Positions 5,958 through 25,037 of a stretch of 25,037 bases of DNA are shown piece by piece. The translations under genes were made by a program, and so were the position numbers. The notes beneath the pieces were generated by a model. The model ran no database searches and was not told the origin of the DNA. It saw nothing but the letters and a program-made list of their open reading frames with translations. Within the stretch, counting starts at the first letter, position 1, and each line of letters starts with the position of its first letter. Origin of the DNA: a virus (lineage: Duplodnaviria; Heunggongvirae; Uroviricota; Caudoviricetes); the IMG/VR virus record IMGVR_UViG_3300045988_138129, positions 1 to 25,037 of that record. One strand, given 5' to 3'.

Positions 5958-6102
5958 CCCGCAGAAGAACGGCGATTTAAGTGCCGATATCCGGCAGCTT
6001 GAGAACGCGCTGGCACGCTGTGCCAGCCAGGTAAAAATGATTAAACACTGTCAGGACGAAAACGATGCTCAAACCCGACAGCCTGCGCAGGGCGCTGACT
6101 GA
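5812..6102 (+). CDS. lysC: LysC, Rz1-like outer-membrane lipoprotein spanin, embedded out of frame in the 3' end of lysB
   Basis: In-frame ATG at 5812 inside ORF 5695..6102 gives MKTRISAAGMALTCLMLCAGC..., a signal peptide with an LCAGC lipobox, followed by a proline-rich mature region. Overlaps the lysB 3' end and the R start. Confidence 0.82.
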   Translation: MKTRISAAGMALTCLMLCAGCTSVRPALTPVIVANACPKVSLCPMPGSDPQKNGDLSADIRQLENALARCASQVKMIKHCQDENDAQTRQPAQGAD

Positions 6103-6532
6103 TGCCGTCACGGTGCTGAAAACTAACCCCGATATGCTGCGGATATTCGTGGATAACGGGAGTATTGCCTCCACACTGGCGACGTCGCTGTCGTTCGAAA
6201 AGCGTTACACGCTCAATGTCATTGTGACCGGCTTTACCGGTGATTTTGACCTGCTCATCGTGCCGGTGCTGGCGTGGCTGCGGGAAAATCAGCCCGACAT
6301 CATGACCACCGACGAAGGCCAGAAAAAGGGCTTCACGTTTTATGCAGACATCAACAATGACAGCAGCTTTGATATCAGCATCAGCCTGATGCTGACCGAG
6401 CGCACGCTGGTCAGTGAGGTGGACGGCGCGCTGCATGTGAAGAATATCCCGGAACCTCCGCCGCCGGAGCCGGTCACCCGCCCGATGGAGCTTTATATCA
6501 ATGGCGAACTGGTGAGTAAGTGGGATGAATGA
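6065..6532 (+). CDS. R: Tail completion protein gpR
   Basis: 155 aa, MLKPDSLRRALTDAVTVLKTNPDMLRIFVDNGSIASTLATSLSFEKRYTLNVIVTGFTGDFD...; P2 gpR. Confidence 0.92.
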   Translation: MLKPDSLRRALTDAVTVLKTNPDMLRIFVDNGSIASTLATSLSFEKRYTLNVIVTGFTGDFDLLIVPVLAWLRENQPDIMTTDEGQKKGFTFYADINNDSSFDISISLMLTERTLVSEVDGALHVKNIPEPPPPEPVTRPMELYINGELVSKWDE

Positions 6533-6977
6533 GTTTAAGCGTTTTGAAGACAGGCTGACCGGACTGATTGAGTCGCTGTCACCGTCAGGGCGTCGGCGAC
6601 TGAGCGCCGAACTGGCGAAACGTCTGCGTCAGAGTCAGCAGCGTCGGGTGATGGCACAGAAAGCCCCGGACGGCACACCCTACGCACCACGCCAGCAGCA
6701 GAGCGCCAGAAAAAAGACCGGTCGCGTTAAGCGAAAAATGTTTGCGAAACTTATCACCAGTCGTTTTTTGCATATCCGCGCCAGCCCTGAACAGGCATCA
6801 ATGGAGTTTTACGGCGGGAAGTCACCGAAAATAGCCAGTGTGCATCAGTTCGGTCTGTCGGAAGAAACCCGGAAAGACGGTAAGAAAATTGAATATCCGG
6901 CGCGTCCTCTGCTCGGCTTTACCGGTGAGGATGTGCAGATGATTGAAGAGATTATCCTGGCTCACCTGAATCGTTAG
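6525..6977 (+). CDS. S: Tail completion / virion morphogenesis protein gpS
   Basis: 150 aa, MNEFKRFEDRLTGLIESLSPSGRRRLSAELAKRLRQSQQRRV...; P2 gpS; start overlaps the R stop. Confidence 0.92.
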   Translation: MNEFKRFEDRLTGLIESLSPSGRRRLSAELAKRLRQSQQRRVMAQKAPDGTPYAPRQQQSARKKTGRVKRKMFAKLITSRFLHIRASPEQASMEFYGGKSPKIASVHQFGLSEETRKDGKKIEYPARPLLGFTGEDVQMIEEIILAHLNR

Positions 6978-7052
6978 CTTTAATCATCTGAGAATATAAG
7001 ATAGAAATCAATTGATTAGCATAATTTATTTTGAATTTTCATGTTAATAAAT

Positions 7053-7075
7053 AAAAGGCCAGTTATTGGCCTTTT
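7053..7075. terminator. Bidirectional hairpin terminator between convergent S and the S-V cargo gene
   Basis: aaaaGGCCAgttatTGGCCtttt: GC stem flanked by A-run and T-run, so it can serve both strands. Sits between the S stop (6977) and the stop of the minus-strand cargo gene (7080). Confidence 0.7.
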
Positions 7076-7079
7076 ATCA

Positions 7080-8153
7080 TTACTTTCCATTTTTTAATGA
7101 ATTGATTAACGATGCTATTTGCTCAATGCCATCAAATGTAGATGGTATCTTATCATCGGATAGCATGATGTTTGAAAATACTACGTCTTCGAATTTTGAA
7201 AGCGCTTCCGGATTGTTTTTCCTTATCTCTGAGGAATAGTCGCTATAACTCTGAATGAACTGACAAAGGCTCTTTCTGAGTTCTATTTGCATAATCTGAG
7301 TTCGTAACGATATATGATTTAGCAGTACAACTCTAAAGTAATACATGAAAATCAATGTAACTGATGCAAAAGGTAGTGCTGACATAAAATATGTGGCAGC
7401 ATTTGTCGTTTCGAGAGCTGGTAATTTATGCATTCCATAGTATATCAGCGGGGAGGGAATGATTATAGCCAAGATGATAAGAGTTATTCTTGATAGCATG
7501 ATTTCACTTTCTTTCTTTTTGCCAAGTGAATTAAAGCCTTCAAACAATCCAACAAAATTAAATGCGACCTCATACCCTTTTAATGACTCTTTGATTGACT
7601 CTATTTTGGCATGTTGCTCCTTTAAGAAGGAGTCGCACTTTTCGAAAAATTGACGCCCTTCGTTTAAACTATCAATGTATTTTTTATATGTGTCAACATT
7701 GCTGGAGCTTAAAACTTCTTTAACCATTGCTAATGGCAGTTCTCTAAGAGAAAAGTCTATCTGTGCTCTGCTCCGCTCATCGAATTCATTATAGTTATAC
7801 AGAGCAAAATCCTTGATGGTTCTTAGTGGTGAAAAGTGAGACTCTATTTCCGGAGAGAGAATGCTTGGTTCAATGATAAATCTAAAAAAGCAAGTGAATA
7901 TAAGGTTGATGCTGTTGTTATCTTCTCCCTTTTCTCTTAAGAAACTTTTAAAGGTGTCGCCAATCATAGCAATGTTGTACTGGGATTTTTTGTCCCAATC
8001 TTCAGGGTTTTCGGAAATGAAGTTTATTGCTTGAGCAATTATTTTGTTTCTGCTTGATTCAAAGTTTGTGCCGGGAGTCAGCGTGTTCAAAAAGACCAGA
8101 TAATCTTTGAACAATTCTTTCATTGTTTCTGACGAGAAAAAGTAAGTACTCAT
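7080..8153 (-). CDS. Hypothetical two-TM membrane protein in the S-V accessory position; candidate abortive-infection or defense protein
   Basis: Uninterrupted minus-strand ORF, AT-rich by eye. Soluble N-terminal ~240 aa, two hydrophobic helices (LSRITLIILAIIIPSPLIYYG; AATYFMSALPFASVTLIFMYYFRVVLL), C-terminal ~85 aa tail. ATG at 8153 (MSTYFF...) gives 358 aa and avoids overlapping V; alternative starts are GTG at 8249 (389 aa, overlaps V) and ATG at 8123. Confidence 0.75.
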   Translation of the reverse strand: MSTYFFSSETMKELFKDYLVFLNTLTPGTNFESSRNKIIAQAINFISENPEDWDKKSQYNIAMIGDTFKSFLREKGEDNNSINLIFTCFFRFIIEPSILSPEIESHFSPLRTIKDFALYNYNEFDERSRAQIDFSLRELPLAMVKEVLSSSNVDTYKKYIDSLNEGRQFFEKCDSFLKEQHAKIESIKESLKGYEVAFNFVGLFEGFNSLGKKKESEIMLSRITLIILAIIIPSPLIYYGMHKLPALETTNAATYFMSALPFASVTLIFMYYFRVVLLNHISLRTQIMQIELRKSLCQFIQSYSDYSSEIRKNNPEALSKFEDVVFSNIMLSDDKIPSTFDGIEQIASLINSLKNGK

Positions 8154-8239
8154 AATGGATTTTGTTGTCCCTTGTTGTTCTGTGCACCAGAAATCGTGGT
8201 GTGATTTACTTCGAGATTGTACAGAATCATTATTATCGA
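8154..8239. promoter_or_regulatory. Divergent intergenic region, expected site of the V late promoter and of the cargo-gene promoter
   Basis: 86-bp gap between the cargo-gene start (8153, minus) and the V start (8240, plus), containing TTGTTGT...TTGTTCTGT elements. Called from position only. Confidence 0.3.
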
Positions 8240-8869
8240 ATGAATGCACAATACAATGAAATTCTTCGCTTTATACGCAATATGATTCGCACTGGCATTA
8301 TCGTCGAAACCGACCTTAATGCCGGTCGCTGCCGTGTGCAGACCGGCGGCATGTGCACCGACTGGCTTCAGTGGCTGACCCATCGCGCCGGTCGTTCGCG
8401 CACATGGTGGGCACCTTCCGTGGGGGAACAGGTGCTGATTCTGGCCGTGGGCGGTGAACTCGACACGGCGTTCGTTCTGCCGGGGATTTATTCCGGCGAT
8501 AACCCCGCGCCGTCGGCGTCGGCGGATGCCCTGCATATCCGTTTCCCTGACGGGGCGGTGATTGAGTATGAACCTGAAACCAGTGCACTCACGGTAAGCG
8601 GAATTAAAACGGCCAGCGTGACGGCTTCTGATTCTGTTACTGCCACGGTGCCGGTGGTCATGGTGAAAGCATCAACCCGCGTCACCCTGGACACACCGGA
8701 GGTGGTCTGCACCAACAAGCTGATTACCGGCACGCTGGAAGTGCAGAAGGGCGGGACGATGCGCGGCAACATTGAACACACCGGCGGTGAACTTTCATCA
8801 AACGGGAAGGTACTGCATACCCATAAACACCCCGGCGACAGCGGCGGCACAACCGGGAGTCCTCTATGA
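8240..8869 (+). CDS. V: Baseplate spike / assembly protein gpV
   Basis: MNAQYNEILRFIRNMIRTGIIVETDLNAGRCRVQTGGMCTDWLQWLTHRAGRSRTWWAPSVGEQ... matches P2 gpV. The ORF-track start at 8162 is an upstream extension. Confidence 0.93.
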   Translation: MNAQYNEILRFIRNMIRTGIIVETDLNAGRCRVQTGGMCTDWLQWLTHRAGRSRTWWAPSVGEQVLILAVGGELDTAFVLPGIYSGDNPAPSASADALHIRFPDGAVIEYEPETSALTVSGIKTASVTASDSVTATVPVVMVKASTRVTLDTPEVVCTNKLITGTLEVQKGGTMRGNIEHTGGELSSNGKVLHTHKHPGDSGGTTGSPL

Positions 8870-12753: not shown

Positions 12754-13281
12754 ATGCAGCATTTAAAAAATATTACTGCGGGTAATCCCAAAACTGTTGC
12801 CCAATATCAACTGACAAAAAATTTTGATGTTATCTGGTTATGGTCTGAAGACGGAAAAAACTGGTATGAGGAAGTAAGTAATTTTCAGGAAGACACGATA
12901 AAGATTGTTTACGACGAGAATAATATAATTGTCGGCATCACCAGAGATGCTTCAACGCTTAACCCTGAAGGTTTTAGCGTTGTCGAGGTTCCTGATATTA
13001 CCGCCAACCGACGTGCTGATGACTCAGGTAAATGGATGTTTAAGGATGGTGCCGTGATTAAGCGGATTTATACGGCAGACGAACAGCAGCAACTGGCAGA
13101 ATCACAAAAGGCAACTTTACTTTCCGAAGCTGAATCCGTGATTTTGCCGCTGGAGCGCGCTGTCAGGCTGAATATGGCAACAGATGAGGAGCGCAGCCGA
13201 CTGGAAGCATGGGAACGCTACAGCGTTCTGGTCAGTCGTGTGGATCCTGCAAATCCTGAATGGCCGGAAATGCCGCAATAA
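12754..13281 (+). CDS. G: Tail fiber assembly chaperone gpG
   Basis: 175 aa, [41 protein letters not shown]...; Tfa-type fiber assembly protein immediately after H. Confidence 0.9.
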
Positions 13282-13596: not shown

Positions 13597-15600
13597 ATGA
13601 TTATGAGTGAAAATGATACAACCCCAAAGAAGTCTACAAGCCAGGTTAACAAAGCGGTATTCTTTACATCTGCTTTGCTAATTTTCCTTCTTGTCGCCTT
13701 TGCCGCCGTATTCCCGGATGTCGCCGACAAAAATTTTAAACTACTTCAGCAACAAATCTTCACGAATGCCAGCTGGTTCTACATACTTGCTGTGGCCCTG
13801 ATTTTACTGAGCGTCACGTTCCTTGGACTCTCACGTTACGGTGATATAAAGCTGGGCCCAGACCATGCGCAGCCTGATTTCAGCTACCACTCCTGGTTCG
13901 CGATGCTTTTTTCGGCAGGGATGGGGATCGGCCTGATGTTCTTTGGCGTTGCCGAACCTGTGATGCATTATCTTTCGCCACCTGTCGGCACTCCAGAGAC
14001 CGTTGCGGCAGCGAAGGAAGCCATGCGCCTGACGTTCTTCCACTGGGGTCTGCACGCATGGGCAATTTATGCCATCGTGGCGCTGATTCTGGCCTTTTTC
14101 AGTTACCGTCACGGTCTGCCTTTAACGCTGCGTTCTGCGCTCTATCCCATTATCGGCGATCGCATTTACGGGCCTATAGGCCACGCGGTTGATATCTTCG
14201 CCGTGATAGGCACTGTCTTTGGCGTTGCAACATCGCTGGGTTACGGTGTATTGCAGGTGAATGCCGGTTTGAACCATCTTTTCGGCGTGCCCATCAATGA
14301 AACGGTACAGGTCATTTTGATCGTGGTCATCACGGGGTTAGCGACGATTTCGGTGGTGTCCGGCCTGGACAAGGGAATACGCATCCTGTCTGAGCTTAAT
14401 CTGGGCCTGGCGGTGTTGCTCCTGGCGCTGGTCTTGTGCCTGGGTCCCACTGTGCTTCTGCTGAAGTCATTTGTGGAAAATACGGGTGGTTATCTGTCGG
14501 AACTGGTGAGTAAAACGTTCAACCTTTACGCGTATGAACCCAAGTCGAGCAACTGGCTGGGGGGCTGGACATTATTATACTGGGGATGGTGGCTTTCATG
14601 GTCGCCGTTTGTAGGTATGTTCATTGCACGCGTTTCCCGCGGCAGGACAATTCGTGAGTTCGTGACTGGCGTGTTGTTTGTTCCCGCCGGCTTTACGCTC
14701 ATGTGGATGACGGTGTTTGGAAACAGCGCCATCTATCTCATCATGAACCAGGGCGCCACTGACCTCGCCAATACCGTTCAGCAGGATGTTGCGCTTGCCC
14801 TGTTTAATTTCCTGGAGCATTTCCCGTTCTCTTCCGTGCTGTCATTCATTGCAATGGCGATGGTCATCGTCTTCTTTGTAACGTCTGCTGATTCGGGGGC
14901 AATGGTTGTGGATACTCTGGCATCAGGTGGGGTGGCAAACACGCCCGTCTGGCAGCGAATTTTCTGGGCATTGCTCATGGGCGTTGTTGCTATTGCCCTG
15001 CTGATCGCAGGGGGGCTGAGTGCGTTGCAAACCGTAACGATAGCGAGTGCATTGCCCTTCTCAGTTATCTTATTAATATCCATATACGGACTGTTAAAAG
15101 CCCTGCGTCGGGATTTGACCAAGCGTGAAAGCCTTAGCATGGCGACTATTGCTCCTACGGCTGCACGTAACCCAATTCCTTGGCAGAGAAGGTTACGCAA
15201 TATCGCGTATTTGCCGAAGCGCTCTCTTGTGAAACGTTTTATGGACGACATTATCCAACCCGCCATGACGCTGGTTCAGGAGGAACTTAACAAGCAGGGA
15301 ACGATAAGCCACATCAGTGACGCCGCCGAGGATCGTATTCGCCTTGAAGTCGATTTGGGCAACGAGCTGAATTATATATATGAAGTGAGGCTTCGCGGGT
15401 ATAACTCACCGACCTTCGCGCTCGCTGCGCTGGATAATGATGAGCAGCAGAGTGAACAACATCGATATTATCGCGCTGAAGTCTATCTCAAAGAGGGCGG
15501 CCAAAATTATGATGTAATGGGCTGGAATCAGGAACAGCTGATTAATGACATACTGGACCAGTACGAAAAACACCTGCACTTCCTGCATCTGGTTCGTTAA
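13597..15600 (+). CDS. BCCT-family transporter, BetT-like (choline/betaine-type), full length with long C-terminal cytoplasmic domain
   Basis: 667 aa, ~12 hydrophobic helices. BCCT signature GWTLLYWGWWLSWSPFVGMFIARVSRGRTIREF. Conserved blocks resembling BetT at both ends (YGDIKLGP...AMLFSAGMGIGLMFFGVAEPV; QEQLINDILDQYEKHLHFLHL). Alternative start ATG at 13603. Confidence 0.85.
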   Translation: MIMSENDTTPKKSTSQVNKAVFFTSALLIFLLVAFAAVFPDVADKNFKLLQQQIFTNASWFYILAVALILLSVTFLGLSRYGDIKLGPDHAQPDFSYHSWFAMLFSAGMGIGLMFFGVAEPVMHYLSPPVGTPETVAAAKEAMRLTFFHWGLHAWAIYAIVALILAFFSYRHGLPLTLRSALYPIIGDRIYGPIGHAVDIFAVIGTVFGVATSLGYGVLQVNAGLNHLFGVPINETVQVILIVVITGLATISVVSGLDKGIRILSELNLGLAVLLLALVLCLGPTVLLLKSFVENTGGYLSELVSKTFNLYAYEPKSSNWLGGWTLLYWGWWLSWSPFVGMFIARVSRGRTIREFVTGVLFVPAGFTLMWMTVFGNSAIYLIMNQGATDLANTVQQDVALALFNFLEHFPFSSVLSFIAMAMVIVFFVTSADSGAMVVDTLASGGVANTPVWQRIFWALLMGVVAIALLIAGGLSALQTVTIASALPFSVILLISIYGLLKALRRDLTKRESLSMATIAPTAARNPIPWQRRLRNIAYLPKRSLVKRFMDDIIQPAMTLVQEELNKQGTISHISDAAEDRIRLEVDLGNELNYIYEVRLRGYNSPTFALAALDNDEQQSEQHRYYRAEVYLKEGGQNYDVMGWNQEQLINDILDQYEKHLHFLHLVR

Positions 15601-15607
15601 CAGCAAC

Positions 15608-15636
15608 ATGCCGCCACAGAGGCGGCATTTATTTAT
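15608..15636 (+). terminator. Rho-independent terminator after the BetT-like gene
   Basis: ATGCCGCC-acag-GGCGGCAT hairpin followed by TTATTTAT, 8 nt after the stop at 15600. Confidence 0.75.
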
Positions 15637-15663
15637 CCCGGCTGCAATATGAGGGAATGCAGA

Positions 15664-16941
15664 ATGATTTCACGCTGGAAATGGATGCTGAAGCAGACAT
15701 TTAAAAAACTATGGTTCAGGGCAACGTTATTCGCAATTGTCGCAATAATAACGGCCCTTTTATCAATTCTTTTTAAATCAATGATACCTGAGTCGGTTTC
15801 CGTGAAGGTTGGTGCGGAAGCAGTCGATAACATTCTGAACATACTGGCATCGAGTATGCTGGCAGTGACCACATTTTCGCTGAGCATCATGGTCACAGCC
15901 TACGGTTCAGCCACTACTAATGTGACTCCCAGAGCTACTCGTTTAGTTGTTGAAGACGTCACCACACAAAATGTACTGGCCACCTTCATCGGTTCTTTTC
16001 TCTTCAGTCTGGTAGGGATTATTGCCCTCAATATGGGAGCTTATGGAGAAAGGGGGAGAGTCATTTTATTCATTGTAACACTGGTTGTCATTGCCTTAAT
16101 CCTCATCACATTGCTTCGCTGGATACAGCATTTGACCTCTCTGGGGAGGGTTGGTGAGACAACGGCAAAAGTAGAACAGGCGGCCATCGAAACATTTATT
16201 GCGAGAGCAAGAAATCCCTGTCTCGGCGGATATCCATGGCTTGAGAACAATGAACAGCCGAAAGGAACGGTTGCAGTTTATCCGAAAAAGATTGGCTATG
16301 TTGAATATGTTGATATGGTGAAACTCAGCAAGCTGCTGACCAATGATCCCCGTCATGTATACCTCGTGGCGCAGCCGGGCAGTTTCATACATCCGTCCAC
16401 GCCAGTTTTGTACCTGAGTCAGGGCCAGGAGTCATCAATCAGCACCGATTTACTTGAGACGATTATTGTCTCGGATGTACGTTCATTTGCTCAGGACCCC
16501 CGATTTTGTCTTAGCGTCATGGCCGAAATAGCCTGCCGAGCCCTTTCCCCCGCAGTGAACGATCCTGGAACCGCCATTGATGTCATTGGCAGAGGTGTAC
16601 GTATACTTTCCGCTTACGCGCAGAATAAATCTGATGAAATAGAAGTGAAATATCCTTCTGTACATGTTGCACCACTTCAGAATAACGATCTACTTGAAGA
16701 CTTTTTCTCACCTGTTGCGCGCGATGGTGCCAGTATGAGGGAAATTCAGATAAGGGTCCTTAAAGGACTGTCGATGCTGAGTAAGGGTTGGCCTGGAATT
16801 TTTGCTGAAGCCGCACAAACCCTAGCATTTGAAACATTAGAGCATGCTACTCGTGCTGACCATATAGATTCTGACAGATATCTAATAAAATCAATTTATT
16901 ATAATTTATTTAGTGGCGAAGATTCTAATAAAAAACCATAG
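15664..16941 (+). CDS. Membrane protein with four N-terminal TM helices and a large cytoplasmic domain; DUF2254-like (family assignment from memory, uncertain)
   Basis: GAGGG RBS before the ATG at 15664 (MISRWKWMLKQ...); the ORF-track start at 15649 is less likely. Four hydrophobic helices in the first ~160 aa. Conserved-looking block SFAQDPRFCLSVMAEIACRALSPAVNDPGTAIDVIGRG. Confidence 0.75.
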   Translation: MISRWKWMLKQTFKKLWFRATLFAIVAIITALLSILFKSMIPESVSVKVGAEAVDNILNILASSMLAVTTFSLSIMVTAYGSATTNVTPRATRLVVEDVTTQNVLATFIGSFLFSLVGIIALNMGAYGERGRVILFIVTLVVIALILITLLRWIQHLTSLGRVGETTAKVEQAAIETFIARARNPCLGGYPWLENNEQPKGTVAVYPKKIGYVEYVDMVKLSKLLTNDPRHVYLVAQPGSFIHPSTPVLYLSQGQESSISTDLLETIIVSDVRSFAQDPRFCLSVMAEIACRALSPAVNDPGTAIDVIGRGVRILSAYAQNKSDEIEVKYPSVHVAPLQNNDLLEDFFSPVARDGASMREIQIRVLKGLSMLSKGWPGIFAEAAQTLAFETLEHATRADHIDSDRYLIKSIYYNLFSGEDSNKKP

Positions 16942-17002
16942 TTGCGGAGCAAGCGATACGGTTGTTGGCAAGTCAAGGGCAAAGCATTCGCGTGAGAGTG
17001 GG

Positions 17003-17027
17003 CGTCTGCTTTGTGCCAACAGCGGAC
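17003..17027. repeat. Near-palindromic site B (GTCTGCT-ttgtgccaac-AGCGGAC), between the convergent DUF2254-like and HNH genes
   Basis: Core 8/10 identical to site A in direct orientation. Its arms are the reciprocal variants of site A's arms (A: GTCCGCT/AGCAGAC; B: GTCTGCT/AGCGGAC). Confidence 0.6.
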
Positions 17028-17081
17028 ATTATAGATGGTATATGTAGAAAGTGAACATGCGTAGATTGTATGATTTAGCCG

Positions 17082-17891
17082 TCACTTAATTATTGGATAA
17101 CTCACACAAGTATGACCGTTGCTTATCGCATACATTTGGTTTCCCTTAAGATTTACAAATGGAAATGTCGTATACTCATAATTTATAGAGGTCATATTAA
17201 ATGTAAGGAATTTATCTTCAAGTTCTAATTTTGTAGAGTGGGCAGGGTATGTTCCTTCATTTCTCATTGTGATAATAAAACCGATAGGAAAAAAATGTAA
17301 AGCACAAATAAATGCCACATGTCCTTCGTTCATAAATGCTACACTTTGAGCGGATATGTGCATTCTGTGTGGGTAAAACCAGTAGTAAATATCATGAGTT
17401 TCCTCAAAACTTGAATTTTTACCCAAAACATAATCCTTTAAAGGTGTATAGAAGGGGCTATCTACGGGTTCTTTTTTACAATCTTCAACTGAAGTTGCTG
17501 ATAGCACGTGCCCAATCATAGCCTTAGTGAAAGATATGCTATCAAAAGGTATTCTAATGAATGGATATACATTCATACCATTCATATATCGACTTAACTG
17601 TTCTTTAAAGGACTTTGTTACATTTTCAATTGCAACATCGAGCCCACCTAATACCTTATTGTTACAGTGGCTGCAAATGGTTCTGAAATAAGAGCCATTT
17701 TTAGCATTTAATGGTTTAACTGGTTCCTGAATACCAAAAAATTCGCTAACTGTTTTCTGCAAAACAGGGCCTAAGGTTATGGCGCACTTTGGAGGAACAT
17801 GATCTTTTGTGAGCAAGCCATATTTCCCACAAATATTGCAATAACCTTCAGTAATGCCATTGTGCTTCCATCGTTCACTAATTTTCGTCAT
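17082..17891 (-). CDS. HNH endonuclease-domain protein (N-terminal HNH motif, C-terminal domain of unknown function)
   Basis: 269 aa, AT-rich, GAGGGA RBS before the ATG at 17891. Motif C-N-I-C-G-x9-D-H-V-P-P-K ... N-x12-C-S-H-C-N-N-K fits the CxxC...(D/H)H..P...N...CxxC(N)xK HNH zinc-finger nuclease pattern. Confidence 0.78.
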   Translation of the reverse strand: MTKISERWKHNGITEGYCNICGKYGLLTKDHVPPKCAITLGPVLQKTVSEFFGIQEPVKPLNAKNGSYFRTICSHCNNKVLGGLDVAIENVTKSFKEQLSRYMNGMNVYPFIRIPFDSISFTKAMIGHVLSATSVEDCKKEPVDSPFYTPLKDYVLGKNSSFEETHDIYYWFYPHRMHISAQSVAFMNEGHVAFICALHFFPIGFIITMRNEGTYPAHSTKLELEDKFLTFNMTSINYEYTTFPFVNLKGNQMYAISNGHTCVSYPIIK

Positions 17892-18227: not shown

Positions 18228-19418
18228 ATGAGTGACTATCATCACGGCGTGCAGGTGCTGGAGATTAACGACGGCACCCGCGTCATTTCAACCGTATCCA
18301 CCGCCATTGTCGGCATGGTCTGCACGGCCAGCGATGCGGATGCGGAAACCTTCCCCCTCAATAAACCGGTGCTGATTACCAATGTGCAGAGCGCAATTGC
18401 AAAGGCCGGTAAAAAAGGCACGCTGGCGGCATCGTTGCAGGCCATCGCTGACCAGTCAAAACCGGTCACCGTTGTTGTGCGCGTGGAAGACGGCACCGGC
18501 GACGACGAAGAAACGAAACTCGCGCAGACCGTTTCCAATATCATCGGCACCACCGACGAAAACGGTCAGTACACCGGACTGAAAGCCCTGCTGGCGGCGG
18601 AGTCGGTAACCGGTGTTAAACCGCGTATTCTCGGCGTACCGGGACTGGATACCAAAGAGGTGGCTGTTGCACTGGCATCAGTCTGTCAGAAGTTGCGCGC
18701 TTTCGGGTATATCAGCGCATGGGGCTGTAAAACCATTTCCGAGGTGAAAGCTTACCGCCAGAATTTCAGCCAGCGTGAGCTGATGGTCATCTGGCCGGAT
18801 TTCCTCGCATGGGATACGGTCACCAGTACCACCGCCACCGCGTATGCTACCGCCCGTGCGCTGGGTCTGCGTGCCAAAATCGACCAGGAGCAGGGCTGGC
18901 ATAAAACGCTGTCCAACGTCGGGGTGAACGGTGTTACCGGCATCAGCGCATCTGTATTCTGGGATTTGCAGGAGTCCGGCACCGATGCTGACCTGCTTAA
19001 CGAGTCAGGCGTCACAACACTGATTCGCCGTGACGGTTTCCGCTTCTGGGGTAACCGTACCTGCTCTGATGACCCGCTGTTCCTCTTTGAAAACTACACC
19101 CGCACCGCACAGGTACTGGCCGACACGATGGCTGAGGCGCACATGTGGGCGGTGGACAAGCCCATCACCGCAACGCTGATTCGTGACATCGTTGACGGCA
19201 TCAATGCCAAATTCCGTGAGCTGAAAACAAACGGCTATATCGTGGATGCGACCTGCTGGTTTAGCGAAGAATCCAACGATGCGGAAACCCTCAAGGCCGG
19301 AAAACTGTATATCGACTACGACTATACCCCGGTGCCTCCTCTTGAAAACCTGACCCTGCGCCAGCGTATCACCGATAAATACCTGGCAAATCTGGTCACC
19401 TCGGTTAACAGCAATTAA
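18228..19418 (+). CDS. FI: Tail sheath protein gpFI
   Basis: 396 aa, MSDYHHGVQVLEINDGTRVISTVSTAIVGMVCTASDADAETFPLNKPVLITNVQ...; contractile tail sheath of P2 type. Confidence 0.95.
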   Translation: MSDYHHGVQVLEINDGTRVISTVSTAIVGMVCTASDADAETFPLNKPVLITNVQSAIAKAGKKGTLAASLQAIADQSKPVTVVVRVEDGTGDDEETKLAQTVSNIIGTTDENGQYTGLKALLAAESVTGVKPRILGVPGLDTKEVAVALASVCQKLRAFGYISAWGCKTISEVKAYRQNFSQRELMVIWPDFLAWDTVTSTTATAYATARALGLRAKIDQEQGWHKTLSNVGVNGVTGISASVFWDLQESGTDADLLNESGVTTLIRRDGFRFWGNRTCSDDPLFLFENYTRTAQVLADTMAEAHMWAVDKPITATLIRDIVDGINAKFRELKTNGYIVDATCWFSEESNDAETLKAGKLYIDYDYTPVPPLENLTLRQRITDKYLANLVTSVNSN

Positions 19419-24932: not shown

Positions 24933-24959
24933 AAAAAATAAGCCCGTGTAAGGGAGATT
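24933..24959. other. att core-like 27-nt sequence (prophage attachment-site junction)
   Basis: AAAAAATAAGCCCGTGTAAGGGAGATT, ~100 bp after ogr, which is where att lies in P2. Matches the P2 att core as I recall it (from memory, not verified). Only 78 nt of flank remain in the window. Confidence 0.6.
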
Positions 24960-25037
24960 ACACAGGCTAAGGAGGTGGTTCTTGGTACAGCTAGCATTTT
25001 ATGGGTTATGTTTTTCAGCGAAACGGATGATAACCTT

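Follow-up and report, generated by a model that had tools for sequence, protein, structure and literature searches.

An antisense, AT-rich membrane-protein gene between the tail genes S and V of a P2-like prophage: a candidate anti-phage moron

Between the tail genes S and V of a P2-like prophage, within a stretch of Caudoviricetes DNA of 25,037 nucleotides (IMG/VR record IMGVR_UViG_3300045988_138129, positions 1 to 25,037; hereafter the window), lies a single AT-rich gene that is antisense to its late-gene neighbors and encodes a protein predicted to be tethered to the inner membrane by a transmembrane hairpin. The protein belongs to a widespread, polymorphic family under purifying selection, in which an N-terminal domain diverges rapidly while the C-terminal tail is conserved across phyla. 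The best explanation of these features, held tentatively and at a probability of about 0.45, is that the gene is a lysogenic-conversion moron encoding a stand-alone inner-membrane protein that acts against phages by abortive infection or exclusion.

The cassette and its gene

The initial annotation had described an AT-rich cargo gene in the S-V position (the P2 orf30 slot), opposite in orientation to the flanking late genes, and this description holds in each of its parts. Pfam matches identify gpS and gpV on either side of the slot, the GC content falls to 0.32-0.37 over positions 7000-8200 (versus 0.55-0.60 in the flanks), and the gene is on the minus strand with gpS and gpV on the plus strand. 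In megablast comparisons with P2-like phages, matches were restricted to the S end and the start of V, leaving the interior of the cassette unmatched. The cassette holds one gene; the same prophage also carries a transporter as cargo. The features of the region are as follows.

6065-6532: gpR (PF06891, 1e-44)
6525-6977, plus strand: gpS, tail completion protein, left anchor of the slot (PF05069, 6.6e-44)
6978-8239, no strand assigned: AT-rich cassette from the gpS stop to the gpV start (GC profile, megablast, and borders compared with P2 and Wphi)
7051-7077, no strand assigned: putative bidirectional terminator, a G+C-rich hairpin (ATAAAAGGCCAGTTATTGGCCTTTTAT) bordered by an A-run and, on the opposite side, a T-run
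7080-8153, minus strand: coding sequence of the cargo protein, 357 aa plus the stop codon (7080-7082); member of PHROG 9373, dN/dS 0.155
8154-8239, no strand assigned: divergent intergenic region of 86 bp between the starts of the cargo gene and gpV
8240-8869, plus strand: gpV, baseplate spike, right anchor of the slot (PF04717 and PF18715, start taken from RefSeq)

The bidirectional terminator originally proposed at 7053-7075 corresponds to a hairpin that is indeed present, with slightly wider limits, where gpS and the cargo gene converge at their 3' ends; its role as a bidirectional terminator is putative. The P2 record has an annotated terminator at the equivalent place, and some homologous loci are too tight to fit one. 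At the opposite end, the late promoter pV and a promoter for the cargo gene must both fit into the 86-bp divergent region. At 8163-8169 this region has a TGTTGTC half-site resembling the annotated activator site of P2. Scanning the minus strand of 8154-8239 with the sigma-70 consensus gave no convincing promoter upstream of the cargo gene, so that the promoter assignment is weak; the best -10 element found by eye is TACAAT at 8221-8216.

The open reading frame at 7080-8249 (minus strand) would encode 389 aa if begun at the GTG at 8249, as initially listed. The gene is real, but the biological start is almost certainly the ATG at 8153, giving 357 aa; this start is preferred because all of the 40 aligned homologues begin at its position and residue F6 is invariant among them. 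The RefSeq gene call for a 92%-identical allele is 1074 nt long, and in another genome RefSeq starts at M11 (347 aa). The GTG-extended version would overlap the gpV start at 8240; the gpV open reading frame itself extends over 8162-8869. A chance reading frame is excluded, since the computed probability of 357 open codons at this base composition is ~3e-12, homologues number in the hundreds, and the whole-gene dN/dS against the 92%-identical allele is 0.155, indicating purifying selection. Positive selection was not detected by this coarse dN/dS analysis. The same ratio, together with a frame that is intact in 60 genomes, rules out a decaying remnant.

Architecture, family and allele diversity

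Members of the family share a uniform architecture, consisting of an N-terminal helical bundle, a coiled-coil stalk, a transmembrane hairpin, and a conserved C-terminal tail. In the window protein these elements are arranged as follows, all on the minus strand.

7704-8153: N-terminal all-helical bundle, residues 1-150, fast-evolving, a putative sensor (confidently predicted)
7494-7703: long helix or coiled-coil stalk of variable length, residues 151-220 (structure model and alignment)
7317-7493: transmembrane hairpin, residues 221-279 (hydropathy, charge distribution, alignment)
7083-7316: conserved cytoplasmic C-tail, residues 280-357 (identity 0.64, dN/dS 0.024)

The large soluble N-terminal domain and two transmembrane helices of the initial annotation are thus recovered as the bundle and as TM1 (approximately residues 221-241) and TM2 (approximately 255-279), and its statement that a catalytic motif is absent was upheld. 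The predicted structure has one helix over residues 151-231. Other family members carry insertions of ~8 to 25 residues in the stalk region, and the stalk ends in a conserved pre-membrane motif, FNFVGLxxGFxxLxxxK. The K/R-rich flanks of the hairpin are predicted to be cytoplasmic, so that both ends of the protein are predicted to lie in the cytoplasm (~215 residues before the hairpin and ~78 after it). Because the outer loop between TM1 and TM2 is short (~13 residues) and poorly conserved, and because the K/R-rich flanks point inward, the functional surfaces are likely to be cytoplasmic or intramembrane. The C-tail contains the motifs QIELRKSLCQFIQSY, KFExxIFSNIM and KIPSTFDG, in that order, which recur across phyla. 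Invariant positions along the protein include E95, K214, R293, C297, E322 and D341/G342.

The two halves of the protein evolve very differently. Mean pairwise identity is 0.285 in the N-terminal part, 0.524 in the C-terminal part, and 0.64 over the last 77 aa, and the regional dN/dS is 0.18 for the N-terminal domain versus 0.024 for the C-tail. The 58 loci compared contain 34 allele groups. Cargo identity follows gpV identity weakly (rho 0.31), compared with a rho of 0.63 between gpS and gpV. In 33 phage pairs, gpV is more than 90% identical and the cargo less than 60% identical (alleles 32-60% identical), and within these pairs mean identity is 30% over the N-terminal 190 aa and 69% over the tail. 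Cargo alleles are therefore swapped, as cassettes, between near-identical phages.

The window protein matches PHROG 9373, a phage protein family annotated as of unknown function, over its full length (E 2e-133, residues 47-388 of the 389-aa reading frame aligned with profile positions 9-387 of 388). The family comprises ~926 clusters at 50% identity from several bacterial phyla. Among 80 IMG/VR viral contigs carrying the family, 66 have gpS and/or gpV adjoining the gene; of the 50 S-V loci that are fully resolved, 49 have the antisense arrangement. In 58 of 60 genomes, the GC content of the gene is lower than that of its flanks by 5 points or more (median -16). The family also occupies this slot in phages with gpS identities as low as 40-49%, ruling out a recent one-off acquisition. 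Beyond the S-V slot, the locations of the gene are varied. Family members are carried by 223 plasmids (Klebsiella) and by 60 complete E. coli genomes out of 5,426; one is surrounded by replication genes in a Klebsiella phage-plasmid, others, in phage contigs of ~50 kb, have DNA methyltransferases or a RecE-like gene as neighbors, one is in a contig with a Zot-like gene, and one adjoins a putAbiC gene in an integrative element. Many members are chromosomal and away from any prophage, and at many loci the gene is an isolated insert between housekeeping genes. The family is therefore of the accessory type, being found patchily in variable mobile-element loci and bearing signs of horizontal transfer. 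Neighbor clustering over 60 loci revealed no conserved partner gene, so the gene is regarded as a one-gene unit.

The S-V region is one of three regions of P2-like phages with horizontally acquired genes (PMC6823313, PMC3091744), which agrees with the initial description of the slot as a horizontally acquired position. Across Enterobacterales, most of what occupies the slot is this one highly polymorphic membrane family. In E. coli, however, the slot is no rich hotspot: among 60 sampled P2-like prophages it is empty in ~36 and holds orf30-sized cargo in ~12. All of the cargo in those 60 prophages is annotated as 'hypothetical', and none of the known defense systems was seen in their slots. Cargo at the orf30 slot has likewise been described only as hypothetical proteins (PMC6823313). 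The gene is absent from P2, Wphi, and most of the P2-like prophages sampled.

Candidate functions of the cargo protein

The protein most likely serves in conflicts with mobile elements or other phages. A mechanism can be proposed in which a separate promoter, directed against the silent late operons, would drive its expression in the lysogen, and the hairpin would anchor the protein with the N-terminal bundle and C-tail both in the cytoplasm. The fast-evolving N-terminal domain may recognize a component or a consequence of an incoming phage, and recognition might then release or oligomerize the conserved module of stalk, hairpin and C-tail. This module would in turn impair either the inner membrane itself or a conserved host machine associated with the membrane, so that infection would be aborted or its establishment blocked. 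The resemblance to abortive-infection or exclusion proteins, already suggested in the initial annotation, is consistent with the accessory position, the AT-richness, the one-gene unit, the contrast between a hypervariable N-terminal domain and a conserved membrane and C-terminal module, and the allele swapping, but it finds no counterpart in homology to defense proteins. The predicted topology, the defense-type genes beside some members, and the precedent of P22 sieA also speak for it. The conservation of the C-tail is unusually extreme for simple pore-forming effectors, which counts against the proposal, and it could equally mean that the tail binds a conserved host partner in a non-defensive role. 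Also weighing against the proposal are the empty slot in ~60% of the sampled E. coli P2-like prophages, the housekeeping character of most chromosomal neighbors, the negative promoter scan, and the lack of a positive-selection signal in the coarse dN/dS.

The remote-homology searches suggested at the outset found no known defense or exclusion relative; structure prediction gave the helical layout described above. Against Pfam-A, the window protein gave only a sub-threshold match at E<=1 (Mlp, E 0.067), and 40 homologues gave, at E<=0.1, only scattered unrelated families and nothing above noise. NCBIfam yielded no match, PADLOC-DB 2.0 none for the window protein at E<=10, and a sequence profile search of the PDB none below E 0.2. 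For seven further members, PADLOC-DB 2.0 produced nothing meaningful, the sole hit, of the Klebsiella phage-plasmid member to BnzB (E 0.0056), being taken as noise. Confident fold similarity to known defense, Abi or exclusion proteins was not found, and comparison with putAbiC (PF16872) gave no Pfam match and an hhalign probability of 0.09% against the neighboring putAbiC protein. WP_000661081 is not mentioned in the literature searched, nor does it appear in the accessible portions of the supplements of Vassallo 2022 and DefensePredictor. Any association with known defense genes looks weak: by a raw, uncontrolled count, ~10 of 150 neighbors within two genes at ~55 non-P2 loci match credible defense or candidate-defense models, and the remaining neighbors are mostly housekeeping genes. 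In a Vibrio locus, a KAP NTPase (PADLOC PDC-S20, 5.5e-88) overlaps the gene by 7 nt, and other defense-type neighbors include TIR, HEC-06, GajB-like and DRT matches.

Foremost among the alternatives, and still unlikely, is superinfection exclusion without cell death, in which the protein would, like P22 SieA, keep incoming phage genomes out or block an early step at the inner membrane. A prophage-borne, antisense inner-membrane protein in a position like that of P22 sieA, encoded by a single-gene unit and with an allele diversity that suits a changing set of targets, would fit this. However, the periplasmic loop of ~13 residues is poorly conserved, nearly all of the mass is cytoplasmic, homology to SieA or SieB is lacking (hhalign probability 0.56% and 0.18%, respectively), and many members are chromosomal, away from prophages. 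The many loci that are isolated inserts among housekeeping genes would fit a lysogenic-conversion factor unrelated to phages, which would help the lysogen by altering host envelope or stress physiology or by binding a conserved host machine. The strong conservation of the C-tail across phyla also suggests a conserved cellular partner, and the same prophage has a transporter among its cargo. Even so, such a factor is rather less probable again, as a hypervariable N-terminal domain and allele swapping would be unexpected for a housekeeping-type benefit, and the family is patchy in distribution and consistently AT-rich.

Carriage by several types of element (including phage-plasmids and one integrative element), and a membrane hairpin that could be toxic, would be compatible with a selfish toxin or addiction-like element, or with a weapon aimed not at lytic phages but at rival mobile elements (e.g., satellites or plasmids). 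This is improbable given that no antitoxin-sized adjacent ORF is conserved, the slot has no room for one, a search of Rfam found no RNA family in the cassette, and the chromosomal copies are stably kept under purifying selection. The location of the gene between lysis and tail genes, and its long-standing association with the S-V slot in P2-like phages, could alternatively reflect an accessory role in the phage's own lytic cycle, in lysis timing or in tail or baseplate assembly. The gene is, however, antisense to both late operons, missing from P2, Wphi, and most P2-like prophages, and found in many genomes away from any phage genes, making this the least probable reading of all.

Should the preferred reading of a membrane-acting anti-phage moron be correct, the S-V slot would be a further defense locus of the P2-like phages, one more in a well-studied phage family. 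A protective gene would represent a compact (~1.1 kb) single-gene system with a swappable specificity domain, would explain a common 'hypothetical protein' of E. coli genomes and Klebsiella plasmids, and would make the conserved C-tail motif a pointer to a definable effector mechanism or host target. The family is named in no database, and it spans temperate phages, phage-plasmids, integrative elements, and the chromosomes of several phyla. A more far-reaching version, which we consider very improbable, is that it constitutes a new multi-phylum single-protein immune system, in which the hypervariable N-terminal bundle would be a bacterial counterpart of the CC (plant NLR), MLKL 4HB and HeLo death folds that target membranes in eukaryotic immunity, but permanently membrane-tethered by its own hairpin and controlled by the conserved C-tail.

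Comparison with known systems

The closest positional counterpart is P2 Orf30, which occupies the same slot in antisense orientation, with a terminator on the S side and a start ~85 bp from that of V, and has no assigned function. In the P2 record, orf30 is nonessential and on the minus strand, and its function has been entered as 'unknown' (PMC3091744). The two proteins differ in length (261 aa versus 357 aa here), and the comparison called for in the initial annotation did not bear out a relationship by descent (best BLASTP E 1.6 over 36 residues), leaving Orf30 as a positional analogue only.

P22 SieA is similarly a prophage-expressed membrane protein encoded by one gene, antisense in the late region and with a separate promoter, but it is 164 aa long and mostly membrane-embedded, whereas the protein described here is mostly cytoplasmic. 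Lambda RexB, from the RexAB abortive-infection system, is likewise a membrane protein expressed by the prophage; it is multi-pass and acts at the membrane to abort infection. It is 144 aa long, and rexA lies directly adjacent to it in the lambda record, whereas the present family lacks a conserved partner; a rexA-like neighbor was found neither in the one-gene cassette nor as a conserved family across 60 loci, and the hhalign probability of homology to RexB is 0.12%.

A further comparison is with the SLATT effectors of CBASS, retron and Pycsar systems, made here with Pfam models only. Pfam-A scans of the window protein and 40 members gave no match to any SLATT or other 2TM effector model present in that library, and no nucleotide-signal generator or reverse transcriptase is conserved beside the family (a single DRT-like match among 150 neighbors). 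The likeness to SLATT is one of design: a transmembrane pair is followed by conserved cytoplasmic helices, and a presumed membrane executioner is fused to, or controlled by, a sensor.

The S-V cassette and its surroundings

The window is a P2-like prophage in which an AT-rich gene lies on the minus strand between the plus-strand tail genes gpS and gpV, with W, J and I following gpV on the plus strand. The initial annotation had described an AT-rich orphan gene running against the flanking late genes, and this observation as a whole is confirmed, the GC profile giving 0.32-0.37 across the gene versus 0.55-0.60 outside.

Features of the S-V region (gpR, gpS and gpV identified by Pfam and from a nearly identical prophage annotated in RefSeq)
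6065-6532, plus strand, gpR
6525-6977, plus strand, gpS
7051-7077, hairpin ATAAAAGGCCAGTTATTGGCCTTTTAT between the convergent ends of gpS and the cargo gene
7080-8153, minus strand, cargo gene
8240-8869, plus strand, gpV

The size first proposed, 358-389 aa, holds for the open frame (389 aa from a GTG, 7080..8249, minus strand, in the ORF list of the window) but not for the protein, since the first in-frame ATG, at 8153, yields 357 aa. All 40 aligned homologues start at the position of this ATG, F6 is invariant in the alignment, and a 92%-identical allele is a 1074-nt gene in RefSeq; the cargo gene is therefore taken as 7080..8153, and the retention of residues 4-6 in homologues likewise favors the 357-aa start. 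The start is annotated inconsistently in RefSeq (records L001 and L096; window 8123-8153): WP_000661081.1 has 347 aa, from M11, and WP_089583640.1, in the annotation of another genome, has 357 aa. The putative bidirectional terminator placed at 7053..7075 corresponds to the hairpin, and phage P2 has a terminator annotated at the matching position. It is not universal: at several homologous loci the 3' ends of S and the cargo gene directly adjoin or overlap. In a megablast comparison with phage genomes, nothing between S and V was matched beyond the terminal bases of S and the initial bases of V, so 6978-8239 as a whole is a replaceable cassette.

The description of the S-V gap as a known horizontally acquired position agrees with two papers, in which it is one of three regions of P2-like phages with horizontally acquired genes (PMC6823313; PMC3091744). 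Recent work on defense hotspots of P2-like phages covers the A-Q (old/tin) locus, the Z/fun locus and a few minor loci, and the S-V slot is not explicitly named in that literature as far as it is accessible. Phage P2 carries orf30 in the same slot, a nonessential antisense gene of 261 aa located ~85 bp from the V start (P2 record); the comparison suggested initially demonstrates that slot and antisense orientation are shared but that the proteins are unrelated (BLASTP E 1.6). The R-S/V-W block is present in 1,625 of 5,426 complete E. coli genomes, and 60 E. coli genomes contain the cargo gene. Slot content was counted in an evenly spaced sample of 60 E. coli records: the slot was empty in ~36, held an orf30-sized insert in ~12, the cargo gene in 3 and other inserts in a few (among them a 246-aa co-oriented gene), with every insert annotated as hypothetical. 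The mostly empty slot and the few insert types indicate a low-diversity moron site in E. coli, not a crowded hotspot.

A second cargo block occupies the Z/fun slot of the window (13597-17891), between genes G and FI. None of its three cargo proteins had a match in PADLOC, and 34 complete E. coli genomes contain the entire 4.7-kb block. A CyaR/RyeE sRNA gene, full-length by Rfam (RF00112, 95.5 bits), is located at the window's right edge; since cyaR adjoins a P2 remnant in E. coli K-12, this gene may mark the host side of the right prophage junction.

Other features of the window
12754-13281, G (tail-fiber assembly)
13597-15600, plus strand, BCCT betaine/carnitine/choline transporter, 667 aa
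15649-16941, plus strand, DUF2254 membrane protein, 430 aa
17082-17891, minus strand, AT-rich (GC 0.35) 269-aa protein without family match
18228-19418, FI (sheath)
24936-25021, minus strand, CyaR/RyeE sRNA gene

Architecture, conservation and allele exchange

The layout first read from the sequence, a large soluble N-terminal domain and two transmembrane (TM) helices in the C-terminal half, is upheld by hydropathy (hydrophobic helices at ~221-241 and ~255-279, with ~13 residues between them) and by structure prediction. GKKKESE precedes the first TM helix and R/K residues follow the second, so that under the positive-inside rule both termini are predicted to be cytoplasmic. The AlphaFold2 model (40 sequences; pLDDT 79.6, pTM 0.45) is all-helical, with a compact N-terminal bundle, a long helix (151-231) leading into TM1, a second long helix (252-313) with TM2 at its beginning, and a low-confidence extreme C-terminus; the N-domain modeled by itself is confident (pLDDT 91.7, pTM 0.87). 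Conservation is sharply asymmetric in the family alignment, mean pairwise identity being 0.285 over residues 1-195, 0.524 over residues 196-357 and 0.64 over the last 77 residues. Conserved motifs occur upstream of TM1 (FNFVGLxxGFxxLxxxK), within TM2 (YYFRV) and past TM2 (QIELRKSLCQFIQSY, KFExxIFSNIM, KIPSTFDG). Distant members differ mainly by stalk insertions, and one has a longer outer loop; domain order is constant across those compared.

A comparison with the 92%-identical allele from E. coli yields a dN/dS of 0.155 for the whole gene, 0.18 for the N-domain and 0.024 for the C-tail, which indicates that the gene is functional and its C-tail very strongly constrained. Across P2-like viral loci, cargo identity correlates weakly with gpV identity (Spearman 0.31, versus 0.63 for gpS and gpV), and the 58 loci sort into 34 groups of alleles with 60% identity as the cutoff. 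The existence of 33 phage pairs with gpV >90% identical and cargo proteins <60% identical implies that close phages exchange very different alleles at this site. The differences between exchanged alleles are located in the N-domain, as mean identity within these pairs is 30% over the N-terminal 190 aa and 69% over the last 77 aa.

Promoter region and genomic settings

The cargo and V ATGs are 86 bp apart, and a TGTTGTC half-site resembling the annotated activator site of the P2 late promoter pV, upstream of gpV, is located 10-16 bp before the cargo start. Its complement, (A/G)ACAAC, is found ~10-60 bp upstream of the cargo start in all seven loci compared (window 8154-8239; family loci L003, L006, L009, L010, L083 and L089), yet their cargo alleles are merely 36-40% identical. 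From the spacing and this element, we infer that the cargo promoter must overlap the pV core back to back on the opposite strand, an arrangement that would permit expression in the lysogen and interference after pV activation. A consensus scan upstream of the gene detected no sigma-70 site; the best -10 candidate by eye is TACAAT (8221-8216), with a poor -35.

When 1.84 billion representative proteins were searched with a profile, 926 clusters matched at E<=1e-3, of which 672 did so at E<=1e-30, and the best 150 of the 926 representatives are mostly 350-400 aa and matched over their whole length. Members occur in species-level genomes of, among others, Gamma- and Betaproteobacteria, Campylobacterota, Desulfobacterota, Nitrospirales and Bacteroidota. 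The gene stands out as AT-rich against its surroundings at 58 of 60 loci (median GC difference -16 points), and no conserved neighboring gene family was found around it. Enterobacterales members occupy the S-V slot of P2-like prophages (E. coli, Citrobacter, Pantoea, Erwinia, Pectobacterium, Rouxiella and Yersinia phages); gpS and/or gpV adjoin the gene in 66 of 80 IMG/VR loci, and of the 50 fully resolved ones, 49 have it in antisense orientation between V and S.

Other viral settings include ~50-kb contigs where the gene adjoins DNA methyltransferases or a RecE-like exonuclease; on non-P2 IMG/VR contigs (L165, L166, L170, L175, L168, L154) it is often antisense beside phage DNA methyltransferases (four contigs) or the exonuclease. 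One member neighbors a Zot-like gene, and the 9-kb contig carrying both may be an inovirus. A distant but genuine member (hhalign 99.6%) is antisense amid replication genes of Klebsiella phage-plasmids and is a fixed feature of 223 PLSDB plasmids; in Klebsiella phage pJN2-26 (L004) it has 388 aa and lies, antisense, between primase and other replication genes. These Klebsiella plasmids are non-mobilizable, ~110 kb among the records listed, and look like phage-plasmids. Another member resides in an integrative element with a D5-type primase, resolvases and a putAbiC gene, and many chromosomal copies are isolated inserts amid housekeeping genes. By our reading of family counts, an uncontrolled tally, ~10 of 150 neighbors (within two genes) match credible defense or candidate-defense models, including TIR, HEC-06, GajB-like, DRT and PDC-S35. 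In Vibrio brasiliensis (L050:1325-3956), a 508-aa KAP-family NTPase shares a 7-nt overlap at its end with the family gene. This NTPase matches PADLOC candidate system PDC-S20 (5.5e-88) and, less strongly, PifA and QatA, and the pair may constitute a two-gene version of the system.

Proposed function

In the best-supported reading, to which we assign a probability of about 0.45, the gene encodes an anti-phage protein that is expressed from the prophage, works as a single gene and acts on the membrane. Infection would be sensed by the variable cytoplasmic N-domain, upon which the conserved stalk/hairpin/tail module would oligomerize or change conformation, harming either the inner membrane or a conserved, membrane-associated target in the host. 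Allele exchange centered on the N-domain is the pattern expected of a specificity-determining module in a conflict system and is difficult to square with a benefit of the housekeeping type. A role in lysogenic conversion unrelated to phages would account for the extreme conservation of the tail, but it leaves the allele swapping unexplained and is improbable. Blocking of phage entry in the manner of SieA, with survival of the cell, is unlikely given that the outer loop is tiny and unconserved, although it ranks ahead of the conversion role. A selfish toxin, or a role against satellites or plasmids, is very improbable, and least probable of all is a part in the phage's own lytic cycle, against which stand the orientation of the gene, its dispensability and its occurrence outside phages.

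The earlier likening to single-gene, membrane-acting abortive-infection or exclusion proteins is partly supported, but homology searches gave the protein no known relative: profile comparisons with lambda RexB, P22 SieA, P22 SieB and a putAbiC protein were all negative. Searches of Pfam, NCBIfam, PADLOC and PDB sequences also returned no match. The sole family match is PHROG 9373 (E 2e-133), whose function is unannotated; databases already list the gene, as a hypothetical protein and under a PHROG without function, and no database searched assigns the family one. The cargo gene is a well-delimited candidate that can be tested cheaply and whose evolutionary signatures are unusually clear; if the anti-phage reading is true, it would represent a new family within a known kind, that of single-gene, membrane-acting, prophage-borne defense or exclusion.
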